Positions 54,992-64,000 of a stretch of DNA of 64,000 nucleotides are shown here, piece after piece. Origin of the DNA: Candidatus Bathyarchaeota archaeon (lineage in GTDB: Archaea; Thermoproteota; Bathyarchaeia; Bathyarchaeales; Bathyarchaeaceae); the NCBI GenBank assembly GCA_963697165.1, contig CAVOMX010000025.1:1-64000 (forward strand). The letters run 5' to 3'. Every line of letters starts with the position of its first letter. Within the stretch, counting starts at the first letter, position 1. A model generated the notes under the pieces. It was not told the origin of the DNA. It did not search any database and was given only the letters and a program-made list of their open reading frames with translations. The position numbers and the translations under genes are program-made.

Positions 54992-56354
54992 AGATTCAGA
55001 ATTGATAGATTTTGGCAAAAAAGCAGTCAACGTAGCCATAAGAAGAGGCGCTCAGGAAGCTGAAGCATTTTTGAGTAGGGCATCAAGCATTTCGATAGAC
55101 ATTGAAAGGGGACAAATTGTTAGAAGCACCAAAAGTACTGATCAGGGGTTGGGAGTTAGGGCAGTTTATGGGAAAGCAGTTGGATTTTCTTATGTTAATA
55201 CGTTAACGGATAGGGACATAGAAGAGGCTGCGGCAAGAGCGTTACGGGCTGCTAAAGCGAGCAGAGCGGATACGGATTGGGTGAGTTTTGCTGGCTCCAA
55301 AAAGTTTGGTAAAACAAAAGACACCTATGACAAAAGAGCGGCTGATGCGTCTTCGGATGAGTTAGTTGAGATGGCAGCTGACTTGTTGGGTGCGGTTGAG
55401 GCGTATGATAGACGGGTTTTGGCTGTTGATGGTGGAGTTGGAACTTCAGTTTTCCATAAGGTTGTTGTTAACTCTCATGGAGTTGAAGCTTACGACTTGG
55501 GCACTGCAGTCGGATGTTCCATGGAGACGATAGCAAGGGATGGAGGTGATGTGACTCCGGCGTGTTTTGAATTAAATGTAGAAAGAATCTACAAAATAGA
55601 CCCTGATACTGTTGGAACTGAGGCTGCAAGGCAGGCTGTTTCTGCGCTTAAAGCCAAAAAGGTTGAGTCTGGAGTGTTTCCGGTGATTTTTACTCAGGCT
55701 GCGTTTAGTTCTCTGCTATATTATACAGTGATAAACGCTGTCAAAGCTGATTATGTTCAGAGGGAAAGATCTGCGTTTAAGGACAAAATTGGAGAAAAAG
55801 TTGCCTCAGAGCTTGTATCGGTATATGATGATGGACTTCTTGAGGGCGGTCTCTTAACAAGCAAATTTGATGGCGAAGGCGTTCCATGCCAAAAAACGTC
55901 AGTTATCGAAAAAGGTGTCCTGAAGAATTTTTTGTATGACAATTACACGGCAAACAAGGCTGGAGTTGAAAGCACCGGAAACGCATCACGCTCAGGGCTT
56001 GCATCTTACGCTTCCACGCCAGCTCTTGAGGCCAGCAACTTTGTGTTTACAAAAGGAAACAAAACGGCTGAGGAGCTTGTAGCCGAGGTTGATGAGGGTT
56101 TTATAGTGTATGGTGTTCAGGGGGCGCATAGTAGTAATCCGGAGAGTGGAGAGTTTTCTGTTGTGGCTACTCCTGCATGGAAGATTGAAAAAGGGTCTGT
56201 GGCGTATGCTGTGCGTGAGGTTATGTTGACGGGCGTTTTCTTTGATGTTTTAAGGAACGTTTCGGCACTTGGCAGTAACGTCAGGAAAATGGGGCAGCTG
56301 GTTGCGCCATGGATCAGAGTAGAAAACGTCAAAGCCGTTGGAAAGCTGCTTTAG
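54975..56354 (+). CDS. pmbA: TldE/PmbA
   Basis: FDGEG, STGNASR, SGEFS; coupled to tldD. Confidence 0.92.
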   Translation: MVAAPKDSELIDFGKKAVNVAIRRGAQEAEAFLSRASSISIDIERGQIVRSTKSTDQGLGVRAVYGKAVGFSYVNTLTDRDIEEAAARALRAAKASRADTDWVSFAGSKKFGKTKDTYDKRAADASSDELVEMAADLLGAVEAYDRRVLAVDGGVGTSVFHKVVVNSHGVEAYDLGTAVGCSMETIARDGGDVTPACFELNVERIYKIDPDTVGTEAARQAVSALKAKKVESGVFPVIFTQAAFSSLLYYTVINAVKADYVQRERSAFKDKIGEKVASELVSVYDDGLLEGGLLTSKFDGEGVPCQKTSVIEKGVLKNFLYDNYTANKAGVESTGNASRSGLASYASTPALEASNFVFTKGNKTAEELVAEVDEGFIVYGVQGAHSSNPESGEFSVVATPAWKIEKGSVAYAVREVMLTGVFFDVLRNVSALGSNVRKMGQLVAPWIRVENVKAVGKLL

Positions 56355-56473
56355 AAAATGTGAACTTATTAATAGACAAAAAAATATTGCGTCGAAAGTG
56401 TATACAGTGGATACAAAAGCATCAACAGAAAATATAAAACCTGTTAGATAGCATACTTGAATGTAAGCACAGA

Positions 56474-57117
56474 CTATTTTCATCATGAATATAGCCATTT
56501 CAATGTCTGCTATACTGAAGGGGTATCCTTCGGAGTTTAGATAGTCTCGGATTATTTCTAGGGTCCAGATTAACTTTTGATAATTTTTTGTCCATCCAGA
56601 GTCTGAGCAGGGGTCTCCTGGTCTTGCACGTCCGGCTGGGCATTTGATGACTGGTTTTTCAGTAAATTGCAGAGTCTTTAGAGCGTGTCCAACGTTACTA
56701 TCGTAGATACAAAATCTTTCTTGATCGAAGAGTCCAATAATTTTGGATGCTCGAGATATTCCAACACCCTTTATGTTTAAGAGTTCCTCAACTGCATCAG
56801 ATATTTTGCCTTTATCAACAAAATCGAATACCCTTCTAGTAATCTCCAAAACTTTATCTTCGTCACGTAAAGGAAACGGAGGAAAACCGCCCCAAGACAT
56901 GATCATATCAAGAGTTTCAAGACCAACGCCACCAGAATTTTGAATCCGAGACAAAACGATGGCTTGAGAATACTTGGTTACGTTCCACGAGACATGCTTT
57001 AGGCTCTTTATCGTTCCATGAATAGTTCTTTCTACCTTCAATAAGACGTGATTTGTTTTCTTTGACCCAATCTAAAATAACTTGTCCGTATTTTCTTAAA
57101 AATAGGTCTTTATCCAT
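56474..57117 (-). CDS. Helix-hairpin-helix DNA glycosylase-like (OGG-like) protein with two apparent +1 A-run frameshifts
   Basis: IMSWGG, IKGVGISRASKI, FCIYDSNVG, DIEMAIFM; removing one A near 57008 and one near 56478 gives one ORF from 57117 to TAG at 56474. Confidence 0.65.
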
Positions 57118-57157: not shown

Positions 57158-57245
57158 TGGCGCGGGGTGCGGGATTTGAACCCGCGTGGCCCTACGGACC
57201 ACAGACTTAGCAGGCCTGCTCCCTACCAGGCTAGGAGAACCCCGC
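57158..57245 (-). tRNA. tRNA-Ser(GCT)
   Basis: GCGGGGT/ACCCCGC acceptor, CAGGC CT GCT AA GTCTG, long variable arm, G73, CCA. Confidence 0.96.
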
Positions 57246-57349
57246 AAAGGTCACTCTACTCCAATTTTCTCTAGTTCAAGACTCGGGAGTTTACCTTCCT
57301 ACAATTATACTCAGCATCTATTTTTGTCTTTTTGTGGGTTGACTACGCT
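57225..57349. repeat. Direct repeat copy A (tRNA-Ser 5' 21 nt plus upstream DNA)
   Basis: First 38 nt identical to 62888-62925; remainder similar with scattered differences. Confidence 0.92.
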
Positions 57350-57616
57350 CAAAAGGTAAAGCAACAAAAAAGACTTGTATCTTATATCATGTAATTCATA
57401 ATTTTTTGGAACAAGTTAATGCGCCCGCTAGAGTTTTTTTTCATTTCGTATCCCAATAAATTCTCACGAATAATTTGGGTTTGGAATTTGAGTAAATGGC
57501 AAAATATGGGAAACCAATTTAGAAACTCGTTTTGAATGCAGCTCACAAATTAAATAAGGAAATATTTAGATGTTAAAAAAAGTGGTCGGGATCAAACCTT
57601 GCGCGTGCGTTTATGA

Positions 57617-58027
57617 CTAATACGATATTAGAGGAAGAGTAATTTTTTGTTTTAAATTATTAGCTATTATTGTGTATTCGATATGAATGTATATTGTGGG
57701 ATCTTTGGAATTGGGTTTAGCCTCTATTTTAGCATGAATATTATCAATCCGTTTTTCCCATGTACTAAGAGATTTTTCTATGAGAAGTGAAAATTTTTAC
57801 CAATTCTGGCTCGTTTCGAATATAATAGATGTTAGATAGACATGTACGGGAGAGTCGAGGTAAGGGCTACGTAATCCTAAAATGAGTTGGATAGAATCAA
57901 TTATGTTTTTATAGTGTGCATTAAATCCTCCATCAACTTCATACGTTCTTCCAGGGAAATCGAGTCTTTCTCTGTAGGAGAGAACGGATAAACGAGAGGA
58001 AGAACAAAGGAGAAAATACGTAGACAC
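57617..58027 (-). pseudogene. gp25/GPW baseplate-wedge-like gene with an in-frame stop
   Basis: IIDSIQLILG...SIIFE...[TAA 57797-57799]...IEKSLSTWEKRI...IYIHIEYTI resembles the gp25 pattern ESIRIIL...LIFE...WEPRI...IEY.I. Confidence 0.6.
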
Positions 58028-58110
58028 GCGCGGATTGCCATTATGCGTTAGTCTTATTCTAGTTATTTTCCAAGTCCAACTTCGATTCTTATAAGAGTTC
58101 CATGATTAAA

Positions 58111-61100
58111 CTAATAATCACGTATCTTTGTCAATAATCGTGCTTTTAATTCATTTTTTTCATATCCTCTAATTTCCAATGTGAGAATTCCTTTGGAATG
58201 AGTTTCTTTCGGCATCTTTATTTTAATTTCTTTTGACTCATTTTGAACATCTACAGATTCAATTGGTCTATTTTCAATGAAAAAGTCAAGGCGTGATAGA
58301 TTTTCAGTGGTAACTACACCAATGATACTATAATTAACAATTTTCTTAAATTCAAAAGAAATTTCATGAACTAGCTTAGACGAAAGTATCTCTCCAGCTT
58401 TGTTTATTAAATCTTTATTACCGTTCAACAAATCGTCATCAGTCATTTGATAAAAAACATCTGGAGTAACTCCGAAATCTTCCAATGGAATAGTTGAATT
58501 TTTTCCAACTCTTAGCATCCTTCTTGCAGCAACTGTCATATTTGCCCCTTTGGGTAGAGAAAAGAATTGGGAGCTTGATGAGTTCGGAGATGTCTTTCCA
58601 GAATCTTTCATTAAGAGAAGAAGTAGATCATGACTCCACACATTTGCTCCTCCGGCTCCTGTATTTTTGTTTACCCCAATTATTGTCCCAATATTGTGAT
58701 CTTTGAATCCAGCCGCAAACATATCAGCCGCACTGTAAGTTAATCCATTCGTGATAAGAACTACAGGACCATAATATTTTTGACCAATATTATTACATGA
58801 GGTGAGAGACGTAATCGGAAATCCTCTGGAGTATGTAGCGCCCGTTTCTATAGCTTGATGTATCGAATCTTTCCAAGGTTTCAAATCGAAATCATCCCAT
58901 AGGTTTGAGGGGCTATTCTTTTCACATATCTCGAGCATTAATCTTGTATTAAGAAATTGAACCTTCTCTGGATTAATGGTATTAGGAGTCAATGTTTGTA
59001 ATAACCGTTCAGCAGCCATTATCAGACCTCCACCATTATCACGAATATCAATAATAAGCCCCTTTTTTGGAAGTGAAGAAAGTAGCTGGATAAACTCTTT
59101 TACGAATTTTTCACTATCATCTACTTTAAAGGTAAATATTCTTATATATGCAAAATCCCCAGCATCAGTTTTCGCCTTTTTGGCTCGGAATACCGATGGC
59201 ATGTCCGTTGGGATTTCTCCTCCTCTTACTGGAGCCCGATCAATATTCTTTTGCGCAATGTTCCTTTCAAGTTTAACAGCGTCTGGAGCGATCATCAACT
59301 TTTTTACTTCTTGAATCGCAAATGAGTGAAGATCCAGACCAAGCGCGGTTGCTTCGCCAACATTAGACTTAGGAGTTGTTGTAATGAATGCTGTTGGAGG
59401 CGCGAATACAAGCCATTTTTGGATTAATTGAAATTCTTTTTCATTAGAGCGATAATTGAAAGTTACCCATTCTTCATCTGGAGGAAATGAATTAATTAAT
59501 GGACGAATAGTTAGAGCATTGATTCCCCTTGCTCTTCGTGCAGCAGGATTACCTCCTCCTTGTTTTTCAGAATTTAATTCAATTGCACGTTTGATTGGAA
59601 TTCCATTCCAATGAGTGATTTCGACACCTTTTTTAAACGTCTTTGGACCGAATCCTTCCATTTTGTAAGAAACGATATATTTTGGATTTTTTTCTCCCGA
59701 ATTATCTTTTATGAAACATTCCTCAATAATGAATGGCATGAAGGCAATTTTTCCCTTAAATGGATGGGGCAGAAGGTAATTTGTATGAAGATCTCTGGTA
59801 GATTTAAAAATATCAATCATTTCTTTATGGAATTCAATTTCACAAGGTAATTCTTCTATTGTTGTCCTTTCAAGCTTGTATTGCAATAATTTTAAGCGTT
59901 GTATGGGATCAATTGCATACATCGCTTTTTTATGAGGTAGATGAACATAAACTTGTTCAAGTAGAACAAGTGCTTGATTAACTATATCTAGACGTTCGGA
60001 GCACTTCAAATATCCTTCTGAACTTAAGAAGGTAGATAATTCAGAGGTGGTATCAAAAAGTTCTTCTTGATATTCATCTTTGAAAGTAATGCTTTCAGGA
60101 AGAATGGGTTTTACTCCGTATATTGAGGGTAACCTTTTTCTTAGAAAGTCGGGGAGATTTACTTGATTTGCAATTTTTTTGAAATATTGTTTATCATCGA
60201 CAACTGCCAAAGGATCAAGTTCTACTACTACATCTTTTAAAAGTGTTGGATAATCTACTGCTTCATAAAAACTTGGAAAACCAGTTTCATTTCCTTCATA
60301 AGGTATATGTGGCCTAATGAATTCGGTTGCTAGTTCATCTTGTTCCAATGATAAAAACCAATAAGGTTTCATCGTTAAGCCTGATGTTGCGCGATTCCAT
60401 CCAGAATCAGGTTGTTCAAGATCAGTAGCCAATTCACCTAATCGTGATAATCCGTCTTGAAGGCGATCGACGGCTTCACTCAATTTTAAAGTTAAAGAGA
60501 TTGGATTGTTATTTTTAGTTTCAAGGTTTAATAATCGAAAAGAATTTTTAATCTTAAGAATTTCGGTATTTAACTTAAAATTATCCATTAGCCGTTTTTG
60601 ACCATATCGAGGAATACCATCTATTACCACAAAAGTAATTGAAGTTTCTCGTGCATCTATAAGTCCTTGATATGGTGGCCCTTTCTGTCCATTGATTACA
60701 ACCAAATCTGCAATTTTTCCCTTTTCTATTGTTCCAATATGTTTATCCCACTTCAGAATTTTTGCAGCATTTCGTGTAACCATTGAAACTAATTCTTTTT
60801 TTGTGAAAGGTTCATCTAATTCATTGTTGATTAAGTGAGCTATTTTCAATTCACATAAAAGATTCTTGCTTCCTGTCGGAGACCAATCTGAACCTAAAGC
60901 GATGAGTAACCCGGAGTCTTTCGCACATCTTATCCTAGCAGTTTGTCCATATAGTAAATAGTTACTCAATGGAGACCATACTATGGAAGCTTCATATTTC
61001 TTCAGTATATCAAAATCTTCAGCTTCAAGTGCTACGCAATGAATTCCAGACAATGCATCTGTAATTGCCCACTTTTCCTCAGAGATCTGAAGAGCAAAAA

Positions 61101-61768
61101 AATGAGCCCGCGATCTTTCATCCACACCTTCACTAAGATGCAACAGCTTGCATCCCTTACTTTCTTCTAGTTGATCCAAGAAAGTTTCTGCTTCTCTTGC
61201 TGCTACATCAGCAATTCTTGTACCTGCATTTGGTAAATCTTCATTATCAGTGGCTTCAACATTACGTACTAACCCTTTAAATCTGGTCTTAGTTCCTGCT
61301 ACCGCATCTGCAAGCGTTATCCCCTGAGAAGTTGTTACACCTGAAATAAGACATTTACATTCAACATATCTAATAATTGCTTCAATATATTTAATTGACC
61401 TTCCCAGCACATACATAGGTCCTCTAATTAATCGCGTTTTATCGCGATGACCTTGCCACTGCCCACGGTTCTTGAATGTTTTAGGAACATTCCATAGTGG
61501 TAAAATGTTATAACATAAATGATTGTGAAGTTCAATTAATCCAGGATAAATTGTACCACCTGTACGAATTACCTGGATTTCTTCGAATCCTTGAGGAGGA
61601 GTTTCGTTTGAAGGTTTTACATCCACAATTTTTTCTTTTTCAATGTATATTGTCCCTTTGTCTAATACTTCAAAATCATCATTCATCGTGACGATTTTTC
61701 CTTGAATTGCATATTTCGGTTTGTTTTGTAAGTCGATTTTATTTTTTGGCGAATTGTTTTCCCCCCAT
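58111..61768 (-). CDS. Deaminase-type amidohydrolase fused to an S41 (tricorn/CPAF-like) serine protease
   Basis: PGLIELHNH, HLSEG, IHC, LGSDW (amidohydrolase); RDLHTNY, DIRDNGGG, TYSAADMFAAG, TGAGG (S41). ORF intact 61686-58111; the natural start is probably ATG at 61768, offset by an extra G in a G6 run. Confidence 0.85.
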
Positions 61769-61908
61769 TATTTTTTTAAAACGAATTCTATTACAGTTAC
61801 TTCATGTTTTTTAAAAACTATAAAATTTTCCCTAGTTATGGTTAATCCGCTACTCTTGAATACCTAAATCTTGTAATTAAATTTAAAAATAACTTACCTG
61901 AAATTACT

Positions 61909-62859
61909 ATGGGGGATAATATGGGTTCTTCTTTTAAAAAATTATTAATAAATAAATACCTGAGTAAATCTATTGACGAAATTTTAAATTCATCATCAGC
62001 GGCTCTCCGAGGACTTAGTGAGACTGACGCCAGCGAGTTAGAAAATTCAATCGACATCACTACTATAAGGGATATGGCGAATAACGAATTTTTTATTCAT
62101 GCAAAGGCTTTACTTTCGGCATCTGGTACACCCAACTACGATCCGGGTCCTCCACCAGATTGGACTGATTTCTTTGAATCCGTACCTAATTACATGTCCC
62201 ATTGGCCAAAAAGAATTCGATGGGAATTCGGACCAATTTTTTACAGAGGAAGACTTGATGGTACTGCAAGAGTAATTGTGATTGGTCAAGATCCGTCCAC
62301 TGATGAAGCACTTGCGCGTCGTGTTTTTGTTGGAGGTTCAGGACAACGCGTTCAAGGGCTCCTTAAAAAACTAGGTATCAGTTCTTCTTACATTATGATT
62401 AACACATTCGTATTTAGCATCTACGGACAATTTGATGCTGAAATGAAGACTATTTCCAAGAATTCTCTAGTTTTGAATTACAGAAATGAATATTTGGACA
62501 GACTAATCGAACAAAATAACATCGAAGCAATCATCGCTATTGGTGCAGCAGCTCGTCACGCCATTGAGAATTGGTCTATCCCACAAGGATTGCACGTTTC
62601 AAATTTAGTCCATCCCTCAGCACCACCAAACATGGTAACTGCCGATTGGAACAAAGATCTCTCAATTTTGCTTAATAAAATTGAACCAGACTTAAACGAA
62701 GTTCAAGATAATAGACCCTATGGTCAAAATTGGGCACCCGGAGACCGGGTCCCAATTCCTAGAAGAGATTTACCGTTTGGAATACCTGAATTCTTAGGTA
62801 CTGGTGGGACTAGAAGTCGTAGAGACACTCCAAAAAAAATTGTTTGGGAAGCACCATAA
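61909..62859 (+). CDS. Uracil-DNA glycosylase superfamily protein with an extra N-terminal domain
   Basis: Motif A IGQDP, FVGGSG, YIMINT, motif B HPS; contains no cysteine, so no 4Fe-4S cluster. Confidence 0.82.
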   Translation: MGDNMGSSFKKLLINKYLSKSIDEILNSSSAALRGLSETDASELENSIDITTIRDMANNEFFIHAKALLSASGTPNYDPGPPPDWTDFFESVPNYMSHWPKRIRWEFGPIFYRGRLDGTARVIVIGQDPSTDEALARRVFVGGSGQRVQGLLKKLGISSSYIMINTFVFSIYGQFDAEMKTISKNSLVLNYRNEYLDRLIEQNNIEAIIAIGAAARHAIENWSIPQGLHVSNLVHPSAPPNMVTADWNKDLSILLNKIEPDLNEVQDNRPYGQNWAPGDRVPIPRRDLPFGIPEFLGTGGTRSRRDTPKKIVWEAP

Positions 62860-62887
62860 AATCAATTATTTAACAAAGGTAACTATA

Positions 62888-63012
62888 ACCAGGCTAGGAG
62901 AACCCCGCAAAGGTCACTCTACTCCGATTTTCTCTATTTCTCAGACTCGAGAGTTTACCTTTTTACCACTATGCTCATCATCTATTTTTGTCTTTTGTGG
63001 ATTGACAAAGCT
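62888..63012. repeat. Direct repeat copy B (truncated tRNA-Ser 5' end plus upstream DNA)
   Basis: ACCAGGCTAGGAGAACCCCGCAAAGGTCACTCTACTCC identical to 57225-57262. Confidence 0.92.
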
Positions 63013-63068
63013 AAAGATTATGCATAGATGTGCGAGAATAGATTTTTCGGGGGCAATTTATAAACAAC

Positions 63069-63245
63069 TTAAATTACCTCAAGAGCTCCATCGTTTATTG
63101 AGACACAAGATGGGGTGAGCTTCACACTTGCTGCACCATTACTCAATTCAATGTTACCTATATTCATAATGATCTTCAAGCCAGTTACGCTTTCAATAGT
63201 GATTTCACCTGTACCCAGTATGGCTTTGATTGTTATTTTGGCAAA
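63069..63245 (-). pseudogene. C-terminal fragment of a contractile-system spike (gpV/gp5/VgrG-like)
   Basis: GEITIESVTGLKIIMNIGNIELSNGAASVKLTPSCVSINDGALEVI resembles the beta-helix end of eCIS spike proteins; N-terminal domains are missing. Confidence 0.65.
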
Positions 63246-63299
63246 ATTTGTTTTGATATGATGCACACTAATAAATGAGAGGGATAGCAAAGATTCAGT

Positions 63300-64000
63300 C
63301 TAATTACCAGCTATCTGTTGGATCTTTATTATAATAAATTCCGCTGGTTTCAGAGGTGCAAATCCTATGATGATATTAACAATACCTCGATCGATGTCAT
63401 ATTGTGTAGTAGTCTCTTTATCGCATTTCACAAAATATGCTTCTTTGGGGGCGGTACCTTGAAATGCACCTTGTATAAACATTTCGTGCATAAACTTACC
63501 TACATTAAGACGAATTTGTGACCAGAGCGGTTCATCATTCGGTTCAAACACAACCCACTGAGTTCCTCGATAAAGGCTTTCTTCGATATAAAGGGCCACT
63601 CGACGAACAGAGAGGTATTTCCATTGGTCAGCCAGTCTATCTGCTCCTCTCATTGTGCGTGCACCCCAAACTACTGGTCCGATTACAGGCATGATTCGCA
63701 GACAGTTGATGCCTAACTGATTTAACTTACCGTTTTCTTTATCTGTCAATTGGTTACTTAACCCGGATATTCCTATCAAGGTTGCTTTATCACCCGCCGG
63801 AGATTTCCAGACACCACGTTCAATATCCGTTCGTGTAATCACACCTGCAACCGCACCGCAGGGCACAAAATCCCGAATTATATTATTACTTTCAGGATCG
63901 TTTGCTTTGATTCGAGGGAAATATATTGCAGCGTTTTTGTGTCTTTTTGGTTGGAAACCTGGACTATCTATTCCAATATTAGGATCCATTGGTTTAGCTT
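63300..64000 (-). CDS. Contractile tail sheath protein, eCIS (Afp/PVC-like) type; runs off the window
   Basis: GVWKSPAG, LNQLGINCLR, VWGART, WKYLSVRR, VFEPND, GAFQG, AYFVKCD, APLKPAEF. Confidence 0.93.
   Translation of the reverse strand, partial: AKPMDPNIGIDSPGFQPKRHKNAAIYFPRIKANDPESNNIIRDFVPCGAVAGVITRTDIERGVWKSPAGDKATLIGISGLSNQLTDKENGKLNQLGINCLRIMPVIGPVVWGARTMRGADRLADQWKYLSVRRVALYIEESLYRGTQWVVFEPNDEPLWSQIRLNVGKFMHEMFIQGAFQGTAPKEAYFVKCDKETTTQYDIDRGIVNIIIGFAPLKPAEFIIIKIQQIAGN

Follow-up and report, generated by a model that had tools for sequence, protein, structure and literature searches.

What do two long enzyme genes do between the remains of contractile tail genes on an archaeal contig? 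This question is raised by a stretch of 64,000 nucleotides (the window) from a Candidatus Bathyarchaeota archaeon, which makes up the initial 64 kb of a contig of 182.5 kb (C25), and in which a gene for a uracil-DNA glycosylase (UDG)-like protein and a gene for an amidohydrolase fused to an S41 protease lie between a sheath gene and a spike fragment on one side and a gp25-like gene on the other. A sequence-only reading had taken the region for the locus of an extracellular contractile injection system (eCIS) and the enzymes for its associated cargo. The gene order and the strands that it gave are confirmed by the sequence, Pfam confirms both the UDG-like gene and the open reading frame (ORF) of the fusion, and the tail genes are indeed of the eCIS type. 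The analysis was extended past position 64000, and the answer that results is another one: the locus is probably a stacked tRNA island that carries, independently of any eCIS, a module of a putative deaminase and a single-stranded DNA (ssDNA) glycosylase with a protease as its presumed output. Each part comes from a known family, and the island is of a rare known type.

Association of the glycosylase with the amidohydrolase

The UDG and the amidohydrolase are a widespread, uncharacterised pair that is independent of eCIS, and the window adds an archaeal, island-borne example of it. In a metagenome survey of UDG loci, which covers the best 80 of 273 loci, an amidohydrolase is encoded beside the UDG in 45 cases, an S41 protease in 23, and both in 20; where more than 1.8 kb is available on both sides, the amidohydrolase is found in 15 of 19 loci, several of which are near duplicates. 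A search with the fusion alignment gave 79 genome loci, with stand-alone S41 genes as most of the matches, and 14 of the 15 loci with an amidohydrolase (six of one genus) also have the UDG, including eight of nine fusions. When 401 genomes were sampled evenly across the phylum to which a Kribbella genome belongs, 17 of them had the UDG, ten of these with the partner (9 of 16 if the centre genome is left out). Among 44 longer UDG relatives, 32 are tandem UDGs, ten have an amidohydrolase fused behind the UDG, and one has the amidohydrolase in front, and as the fusion thus exists in both orders, a role of the two enzymes in one pathway is suggested. A separate S41 gene directly follows the amidohydrolase gene in L150, L154, L156, L164 and L212, and proteases of the caspase, CHAT, C25 or M8 type adjoin the pair at other loci. 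The UDG was found in none of 59 genomes of the same family and the fusion in none of 300 genomes of the class, and a literature search found neither the pairing nor the protease fusion in print.

Sheath, baseplate, spike and gp25 genes were not found to take part in this association. As a tblastn screen of neighbourhoods had missed a tube gene in one locus (L213), 184 loci were screened with profiles built from 1-16 seed sequences and liable to overlook distant eCIS types. By this search, such genes are missing from all 80 UDG loci, and among the 184 loci they occur only in L061 and L065, both times beside a stand-alone S41 gene and without the pair. The relatives of the enzymes travel with each other and not with eCIS genes, which largely refutes the idea of an eCIS-associated cargo.

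Absence of a working injection system

There is no working eCIS locus here. Beyond position 64000 there are a helix-turn-helix (HTH) gene and an alpha-amylase gene, then those of a B12 radical SAM enzyme and of an integrase, and not the tube, baseplate J and DUF4157 genes that an eCIS locus had led one to look for; these were found neither there nor anywhere in the genome, which is 81% complete. The same search found the tube protein (gp19) in all four relatives, the baseplate J search was positive in control genomes, and DUF4157 was detected in two of the four relatives (seven matches in G102, four in G172). TIGR02243 also gave no match in this genome and was above the cut-off in two of four relatives. 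The Pvc16 cap gave no match in this genome, the same search being silent in the controls as well, and no Afp15-type ATPase is among the island ORFs, a genome-wide search for this ATPase not having been made. From the parts of an eCIS the sheath is thus present, and a whole spike and a whole gp25 are both missing, the former being a stub and the latter having an internal stop.

Complete-looking eCIS clusters with sheath, tube, baseplate and DUF4157 genes do occur in this archaeal order, namely in G102 and G172. A spike was seen in the G102 cluster, and PAAR-like and gp25 genes in the G172 cluster, and both clusters (L092 on G102:C51 and L093 on G172:C191) have several DUF4157 genes each. A literature search found no paper that joins Bathyarchaeia with contractile injection; sheath homologues of Bathyarchaeota are mentioned in a passage of PMC9230969. 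Short stand-alone sheath genes amid unrelated genes were observed in G232 (L094:17936-19090) and G193 (L096:11604-12686), where the tube genes are far from the sheath, no baseplate is above the cut-off, and no DUF4157 was found.

The fusion might be imagined as an injected effector, with the UDG as its partner or immunity protein, as the genes are in physical proximity in this island, the order possesses complete eCIS clusters, a tube gene lies beside the pair in L213, and CPAF, the closest structural match of the fusion, is a secreted protease in Chlamydia. Such a function is very improbable and largely refuted by the missing machine, by the 80 UDG loci without a sheath, baseplate, spike or gp25 gene, by the absence of the fusion from G102 and G172 and of a DUF4157 domain from the fusion, and by the main texts of two eCIS surveys, which (supplements aside) are silent on amidohydrolases and glycosylases (PMC8213781, PMC11297309). 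A false eCIS effector candidate is thereby removed.

A probably twice-used integration site at tRNA-Ser(GCT)

The sequence-only reading overlooked a tRNA-Ser(GCT) gene and its three att copies (Table 1). An integrase-bearing island of 14.4 kb (57225-71660) is inserted in the 5' end of this gene; island DNA now precedes the tRNA, and the native upstream region is displaced to contig position 71661 and beyond. Host genes, recognised by sequence and synteny, resume past the integrase. The site is empty in all five genus mates that were fetched, in which tRNA-Ser lies directly beside tRNA-Val and the upstream sequence is the one that is found here from 71661 on. From 24 genomes of the genus that were searched, 17 matched, and 15 of these have the empty site, in one more a contig end interrupts the region, and in G148 there is an integrase. 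This integrase lies behind the same tRNA fragment and is 83% identical to the integrase of this island, and related integrases in G350 and G311 likewise adjoin a tRNA-Ser-like 5' fragment. The tRNA, the displaced end fragment, the internal integrase, and the empty site in relatives, which mark a tRNA-targeted island, are all present.

Copies 1 and 2 of the att site are 87.6% identical across 128 bp, and copy 3, which has 24/24 identical bases, lies 66 bp from the integrase start. Copy 2 separates the spike stub from the two enzyme genes. It has the element arm on one side of the core and element-type bases on the other, as would be the case where two insertions in tandem meet, and its bases after the core resemble those of copy 3 and of the junctions in G148 and G350. 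It is thus very likely that the site has been used twice and that the island is a tandem of a unit A with an integrase and a unit B without one. A tyrosine integrase would have brought foreign DNA into the 5' end of the tRNA gene, and repeated use of the site would have resulted in the tandem, the order of these events being inferred. The GC content of the units (38.0% in A, 35.6% in B) compares with 40.7% and 44.2% in the flanks, and each unit is terminated by a tail scrap, which is sheath plus spike stub in A and the gp25-like remnant in B. A complete att arm is absent from the 59 same-family genomes searched, two of which gave partial matches of 44-45 bp. In two other genera (L256 in G794 and L257 in G136), an arm-like sequence that is not the native upstream region of this genus was observed in front of a tRNA-Ser-like 5' end.

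Targeting of tRNA 5' ends is rare but known. It is given for 159 of 3919 Islander islands in a part of PMC4383910, CalSub-E1 sits at a tRNA-Ser 5' end according to a passage of PMC6563490, and pTN3-type elements, tandem arrays and integrase-less elements are described in sections of PMC8371274. The island has in common with these that the 5' fragment is displaced, that the tRNA is restored behind element DNA, and that the site is reused in tandem, whereas it differs in that the att site leaves its integrase gene whole and that its second unit has both arms and no integrase. It is an example of how a rare 5'-targeting integrase stacks cargo at tRNA-Ser.

An assembly chimera around the repeated tRNA end could come to mind with a single metagenome assembly and with no contig of four sequencing runs that spans the junctions, but the two repeats (copies 1 and 2) differ by 12%, both flanks are syntenic with genus mates, and run X1 has sequence nearly identical to parts of each unit and of the flank. 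Such an artefact is extremely improbable. An isolated low-depth joint in run X2 was disregarded. Also an ordinary provirus was rejected as an explanation of the island. As already noticed from the sequence, there is no terminase in it, the only PF03237 match of the genome being on contig C9, and its long ORFs are assigned to other functions, none of them capsid or terminase, whereby the capsid families themselves were not searched.

Table 1. Features of the island and its tRNA gene (positions above 64000 are contig positions beyond the window)
Feature	Position	Strand	Description
tRNA-Ser(GCT)	57158..57245	-	whole gene; ARAGORN
att copy 1	57225..57352	-	tRNA 5' end (21-24 bp) plus ~107 bp element-side arm; 128-bp repeat
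Unit B	57246-62887		5.6 kb, 35.6% GC; UDG, fusion, gp25-like remnant; without integrase
gp25-like (baseplate wedge) remnant	57617..58027	-	internal TAA; start position uncertain
Amidohydrolase-S41 fusion	58111..61686	-	1191-aa ORF; PF01979 + PF03572; amidohydrolase 1-530, CPAF-fold S41 protease ~545-1105, C-terminal beta domain
Conserved amidohydrolase N-terminal strand	61687..61768	-	in frame with the ORF, out of frame with ATG 61768
UDG	61909..62859	+	PF03167; predicted BdiUng/Blr0248-family uracil/xanthine DNA glycosylase
att copy 2	62888..63015	-	arm, 21-bp tRNA 5' core and element-type bases; junction of the two units
Unit A	62912-71636		8.7 kb, 38.0% GC; integrase, sheath, spike stub
Spike C-terminal stub	63069..63260	-	baseplate V / VgrG-related; starts just past the sheath stop
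Contractile sheath	63300-64868	-	intact, 522 aa; start beyond the window (63300..64000 inside); PF04984 41.3 bits, PF17482 44.4 bits
HTH protein, GH13 alpha-amylase, B12 radical SAM enzyme, 85-aa ORF	C25 64966-69789		unit A
Tyrosine integrase	70269-71570	-	433 aa; PF00589 58.6 bits
att copy 3	71637-71660		displaced 5' fragment of tRNA-Ser, which lies behind the native upstream region, beside tRNA-Val

Tail-gene remnants in the two units

The sheath of unit A is 58% identical to that of the eCIS cluster in G172 and 54% to that in G102. As had been noticed, the spike is broken: what is left matches the C-terminus of the VgrG-related baseplate V protein of G102, with 27/44 identical residues (61%, E 2e-11). 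The sheath gene is directly followed by this tail end of the spike gene, which suggests that a deletion took out all that had been between them, and the two would be leftovers of an eCIS cluster of the Afp/PVC type, to which the clusters of G102 and G172 also belong. Unlike in such clusters, no tube, baseplate J or DUF4157 gene was found here, and spike and gp25 are broken. The gp25-like gene of unit B is likewise broken, by the internal TAA, which no contig of the four runs appeared to cover. It has a PF04965 match just above the cut-off (28.8 versus 27.2 bits) that covers only profile positions 36-95 of 96, and a match to phrog_261 (E 7e-5); no gp25 relative was found at E<=0.001 among 1.84 billion representatives, and the label as gp25 is of moderate certainty. 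In view of this negative search, the remnant is probably old, divergent, or both. The sole match in that search, a TPR protein, was judged compositional, and two ORFs given by the ORF finder (62804-63118 and 63069-63290) were not taken as genes.

The spike-then-gp25 order, the tail-gene scraps at the ends of both units, and a report of eCIS islands at tRNA genes in a part of PMC8213781 would be compatible with a single decayed eCIS island, in which one cluster had taken up the enzymes between its spike and its gp25, att copy 2 arose by internal duplication, and the enzymes are passengers of an eCIS-carrying element. However, the spike stub is of the G102/G172 type, yet the gp25-like remnant does not match the gp25 of that type (tblastn, E 0.5), and att copy 2 has element-type bases after its core like a true tandem junction. 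A single island of this kind is therefore unlikely, and it is preferred to regard the enzymes of unit B as an independent module that would not have been part of an eCIS.

The glycosylase

The UDG is, as judged by sequence and model, a member of the BdiUng/Blr0248 family. The probable start is the second Met, which results in 312 residues. The best structure match is BdiUng of Bradyrhizobium diazoefficiens (Blr0248; PDB 5gn2, E 1e-38), and the predicted fold agrees with that of BdiUng (Foldseek E 7e-24, TM 0.82 by target, rmsd 2.0 A over 267 columns). Both proteins have the GQDP motif A and a small residue at the specificity-widening position, which in the window is the Ser of GQDPS in place of a Tyr, and the residues D128, H235, M163 and N165 correspond to the catalytic Asp and His and to the pocket Met and Asn of BdiUng; of these, D128, H235 and N165 are conserved in 38 of 38 aligned sequences. 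Differences from BdiUng are the Ser instead of Ala59, the archaeal host, and an additional helical domain of 70 residues at the N-terminus. This N-terminal part (window 61921-62130) resembles a stand-alone, unannotated family of 69-75 residues that is mostly bacterial (atlas score 0.92; phrog_36017).

BdiUng prefers ssDNA, from which it excises uracil, 5-hydroxymethyluracil and xanthine, and it does not rescue an ung deficiency in Escherichia coli, as described in a part of PMC5449639, whose main text names no amidohydrolase or operon. It is a structurally solved enzyme without a known physiological role, and a constant, sometimes fused deaminase-type partner makes this role testable. Five matches of the UDG in viral contigs were weak (41-44 residues only) and were disregarded. 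Among the relatives there are tandem BdiUng-family proteins with lipoprotein-type leaders (P0242-P0259), some of them with ComEA-type helix-hairpin-helix (HhH) repeats and two in records labelled Myxococcales.

The amidohydrolase-protease fusion

The fusion belongs to a large family, with 1332 matches among 8000 scored candidates. The best 120 matches listed, which are the window protein and 119 relatives, are nearly full length and 45-56% identical. In these, the amidohydrolase residues H54, H56, H183, E186, H216 and D267 are kept in 120/120, and the candidate triad of the protease, assigned by motif and not by superposition, is kept in 120/120 (H634), 120/120 (S985) and 119/120 (E1069). The AlphaFold model (pLDDT 90.4, pTM 0.87) has CPAF as its top Foldseek match (E 2e-22), followed by deaminases and hydrolases of the AtzA and Vcz type, and the S41 part matches PF03572 with 72.6 bits. 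No signal peptide was seen.

Among the 25 NCBIfam families shown, the fusion is below every cut-off, and neither membership in CPAF nor a named deaminase activity can thus be claimed. For the CPAF equivalog NF033424, 77.5 bits stand against a cut-off of 250 bits, which makes the protease CPAF-like and not CPAF. Its candidate residues are the counterparts of the His105-Ser499-Glu558 triad of Chlamydia trachomatis CPAF (given in a passage of PMC8787135; PDB 3DOR), and it differs from CPAF by an identity of only 16%, by the lack of a visible signal peptide, and by its connection to an amidohydrolase. For the deaminase equivalogs (guanine, 8-oxoguanine, MTA/SAH), the best value is 71 versus 375 bits. 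The amidohydrolase shares the fold and the HxH, HxxE, His and Asp set with the TRZ/ATZ deaminases (AtzA, 4V1X; the isocytosine deaminase Vcz, 7WW2; guanine and MTA/SAH deaminases). In 7WW2 and 3HPA, the fifth residue behind the first His is a Gln with a role in the recognition of guanine-type substrates, and this position is a Tyr in the window protein; guanine deamination as the specific activity was therefore rejected as unsupported, also in view of the cut-offs.

Both enzyme ORFs had been described as long and intact, which holds for their length and their conserved catalytic residues and is less certain for the 5' end of the fusion. The conserved first strand of the amidohydrolase (YAIQGKIVT, in relatives Y.LEGRVVT) has its codons in frame ahead of the ATG at 61686, but the closest ATG before them, at 61768 and followed by a G run, is out of frame with the fusion. 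The discrepancy may go back to a slip in the assembly, a frameshift, or an unusual start. In L193:1362-2932 and L207:4916-6578, the amidohydrolase gene is also in more than one frame, be it by errors or by recurring frameshifts.

Possible function of the module

Small heterocycles are the substrates of TIM-barrel amidohydrolases of this type, and the metal-dependent amidohydrolase would thus most likely deaminate an amino-substituted base, either free or as part of a nucleoside or nucleotide. The matching non-canonical base would be excised by the BdiUng-family enzyme, which would remove bases of the uracil, 5-hydroxymethyluracil or xanthine type from ssDNA. The CPAF-like protease, presumably cytoplasmic, may act as the output arm, under the control of the hydrolase domain or of its ligand; this is suggested by the conserved triad, the lack of a signal peptide, the position as a fused domain or next gene, and the other proteases that adjoin the pair elsewhere, and the fusion hints at an output beyond repair. 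A defence against invading DNA or another conflict role may be a likelier purpose than routine repair, in view of the patchy spread, the carriage by an island, the failure of BdiUng in repair, and the precedent of Brig1 and Brig2. These anti-phage glycosylases, described in a part of 10.1101/2025.10.29.685425, also have the UDG fold, are of the same superfamily on mobile DNA, and could excise non-canonical bases, as might the UDG of the window, whereas they act alone on hypermodified bases, with no hydrolase or protease partner in the main text. This mechanism with its defence or conflict role can be put forward only tentatively. Even more speculative, and rather unlikely in this full form, is a new immune or conflict class in bacteria and archaea, in which a non-canonical base, produced or sensed by deaminase and ssDNA glycosylase, would activate a protease, be it the fused CPAF-like one or one of the caspase, CHAT, C25 or M8 type next to the pair. 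In the island, this system would be a cassette without an integrase of its own that could be stacked at a tRNA 5' end by the integrase of a neighbouring unit.

Several observations weigh against a stacked island with an eCIS-independent conflict module. The order of spike and gp25 around the enzymes is also the usual one in eCIS, and no joint across the att sites and no excised or joined form was found in the sparse contigs of four runs. As to the pairing, the fetched DNA of seven of the 17 sampled UDG genomes shows no amidohydrolase, the metagenome loci are for the most part short with several near duplicates, and six genome loci are from one genus. A 311-aa tube-domain (gp19) gene lies directly upstream of the pair in L213 (1017-1952), without sheath or baseplate, two DUF4157 ORFs are near the UDG in L159, and a tube homologue is found elsewhere in four of 17 pair-bearing genomes. 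Concerning defence, metabolic and regulatory genes make up most of the 94 neighbours scanned, with one PemK toxin, a few transposases and no restriction genes; PADLOC 2.0 (2023 library) gave no family at E 0.01 for either enzyme, searches of 72,556 plasmids and of 50,697 phages gave no match, and the fusion had none in viral contigs. Finally, some relatives look exported, namely lipoprotein-type tandem UDGs and signal-peptide-like amidohydrolases (L167, L173, L177), to which a processing of extracellular DNA would fit better.

The metabolic neighbours, the lack of PADLOC, plasmid and phage matches, the exported relatives with, in part, ComEA-type HhH repeats, and the small heterocyclic substrates of the closest amidohydrolase structures agree with a housekeeping role, in which the glycosylase frees a damaged or modified base from ssDNA and the amidohydrolase converts it for repair or salvage, with the protease as a passenger or for turnover of the complex. 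The architecture of the island would be the same. Such a role is somewhat doubtful but ranks close behind defence or conflict; it leaves unexplained why the protease triad is kept in 119-120 of 120 fusions and why separate S41 genes follow right after the amidohydrolase, and neither the patchy spread nor the inability of BdiUng to rescue ung is in its favour.

Other genes in and around the island

In unit A, the 85-aa ORF precedes the gene of the B12 radical SAM enzyme and could encode the precursor of a modified peptide, and the reading frame of the radical SAM enzyme stays open upstream of its first ATG. Just outside the island, a gene with an HhH motif (window 56250-57117) is in two overlapping frames, and it is a single ORF of 224-230 codons in genus mates. 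On the other contig with the PF03237 match (G000:C9:3874-22000), a terminase-like ORF is found together with small virus-like genes in a separate provirus-like region.

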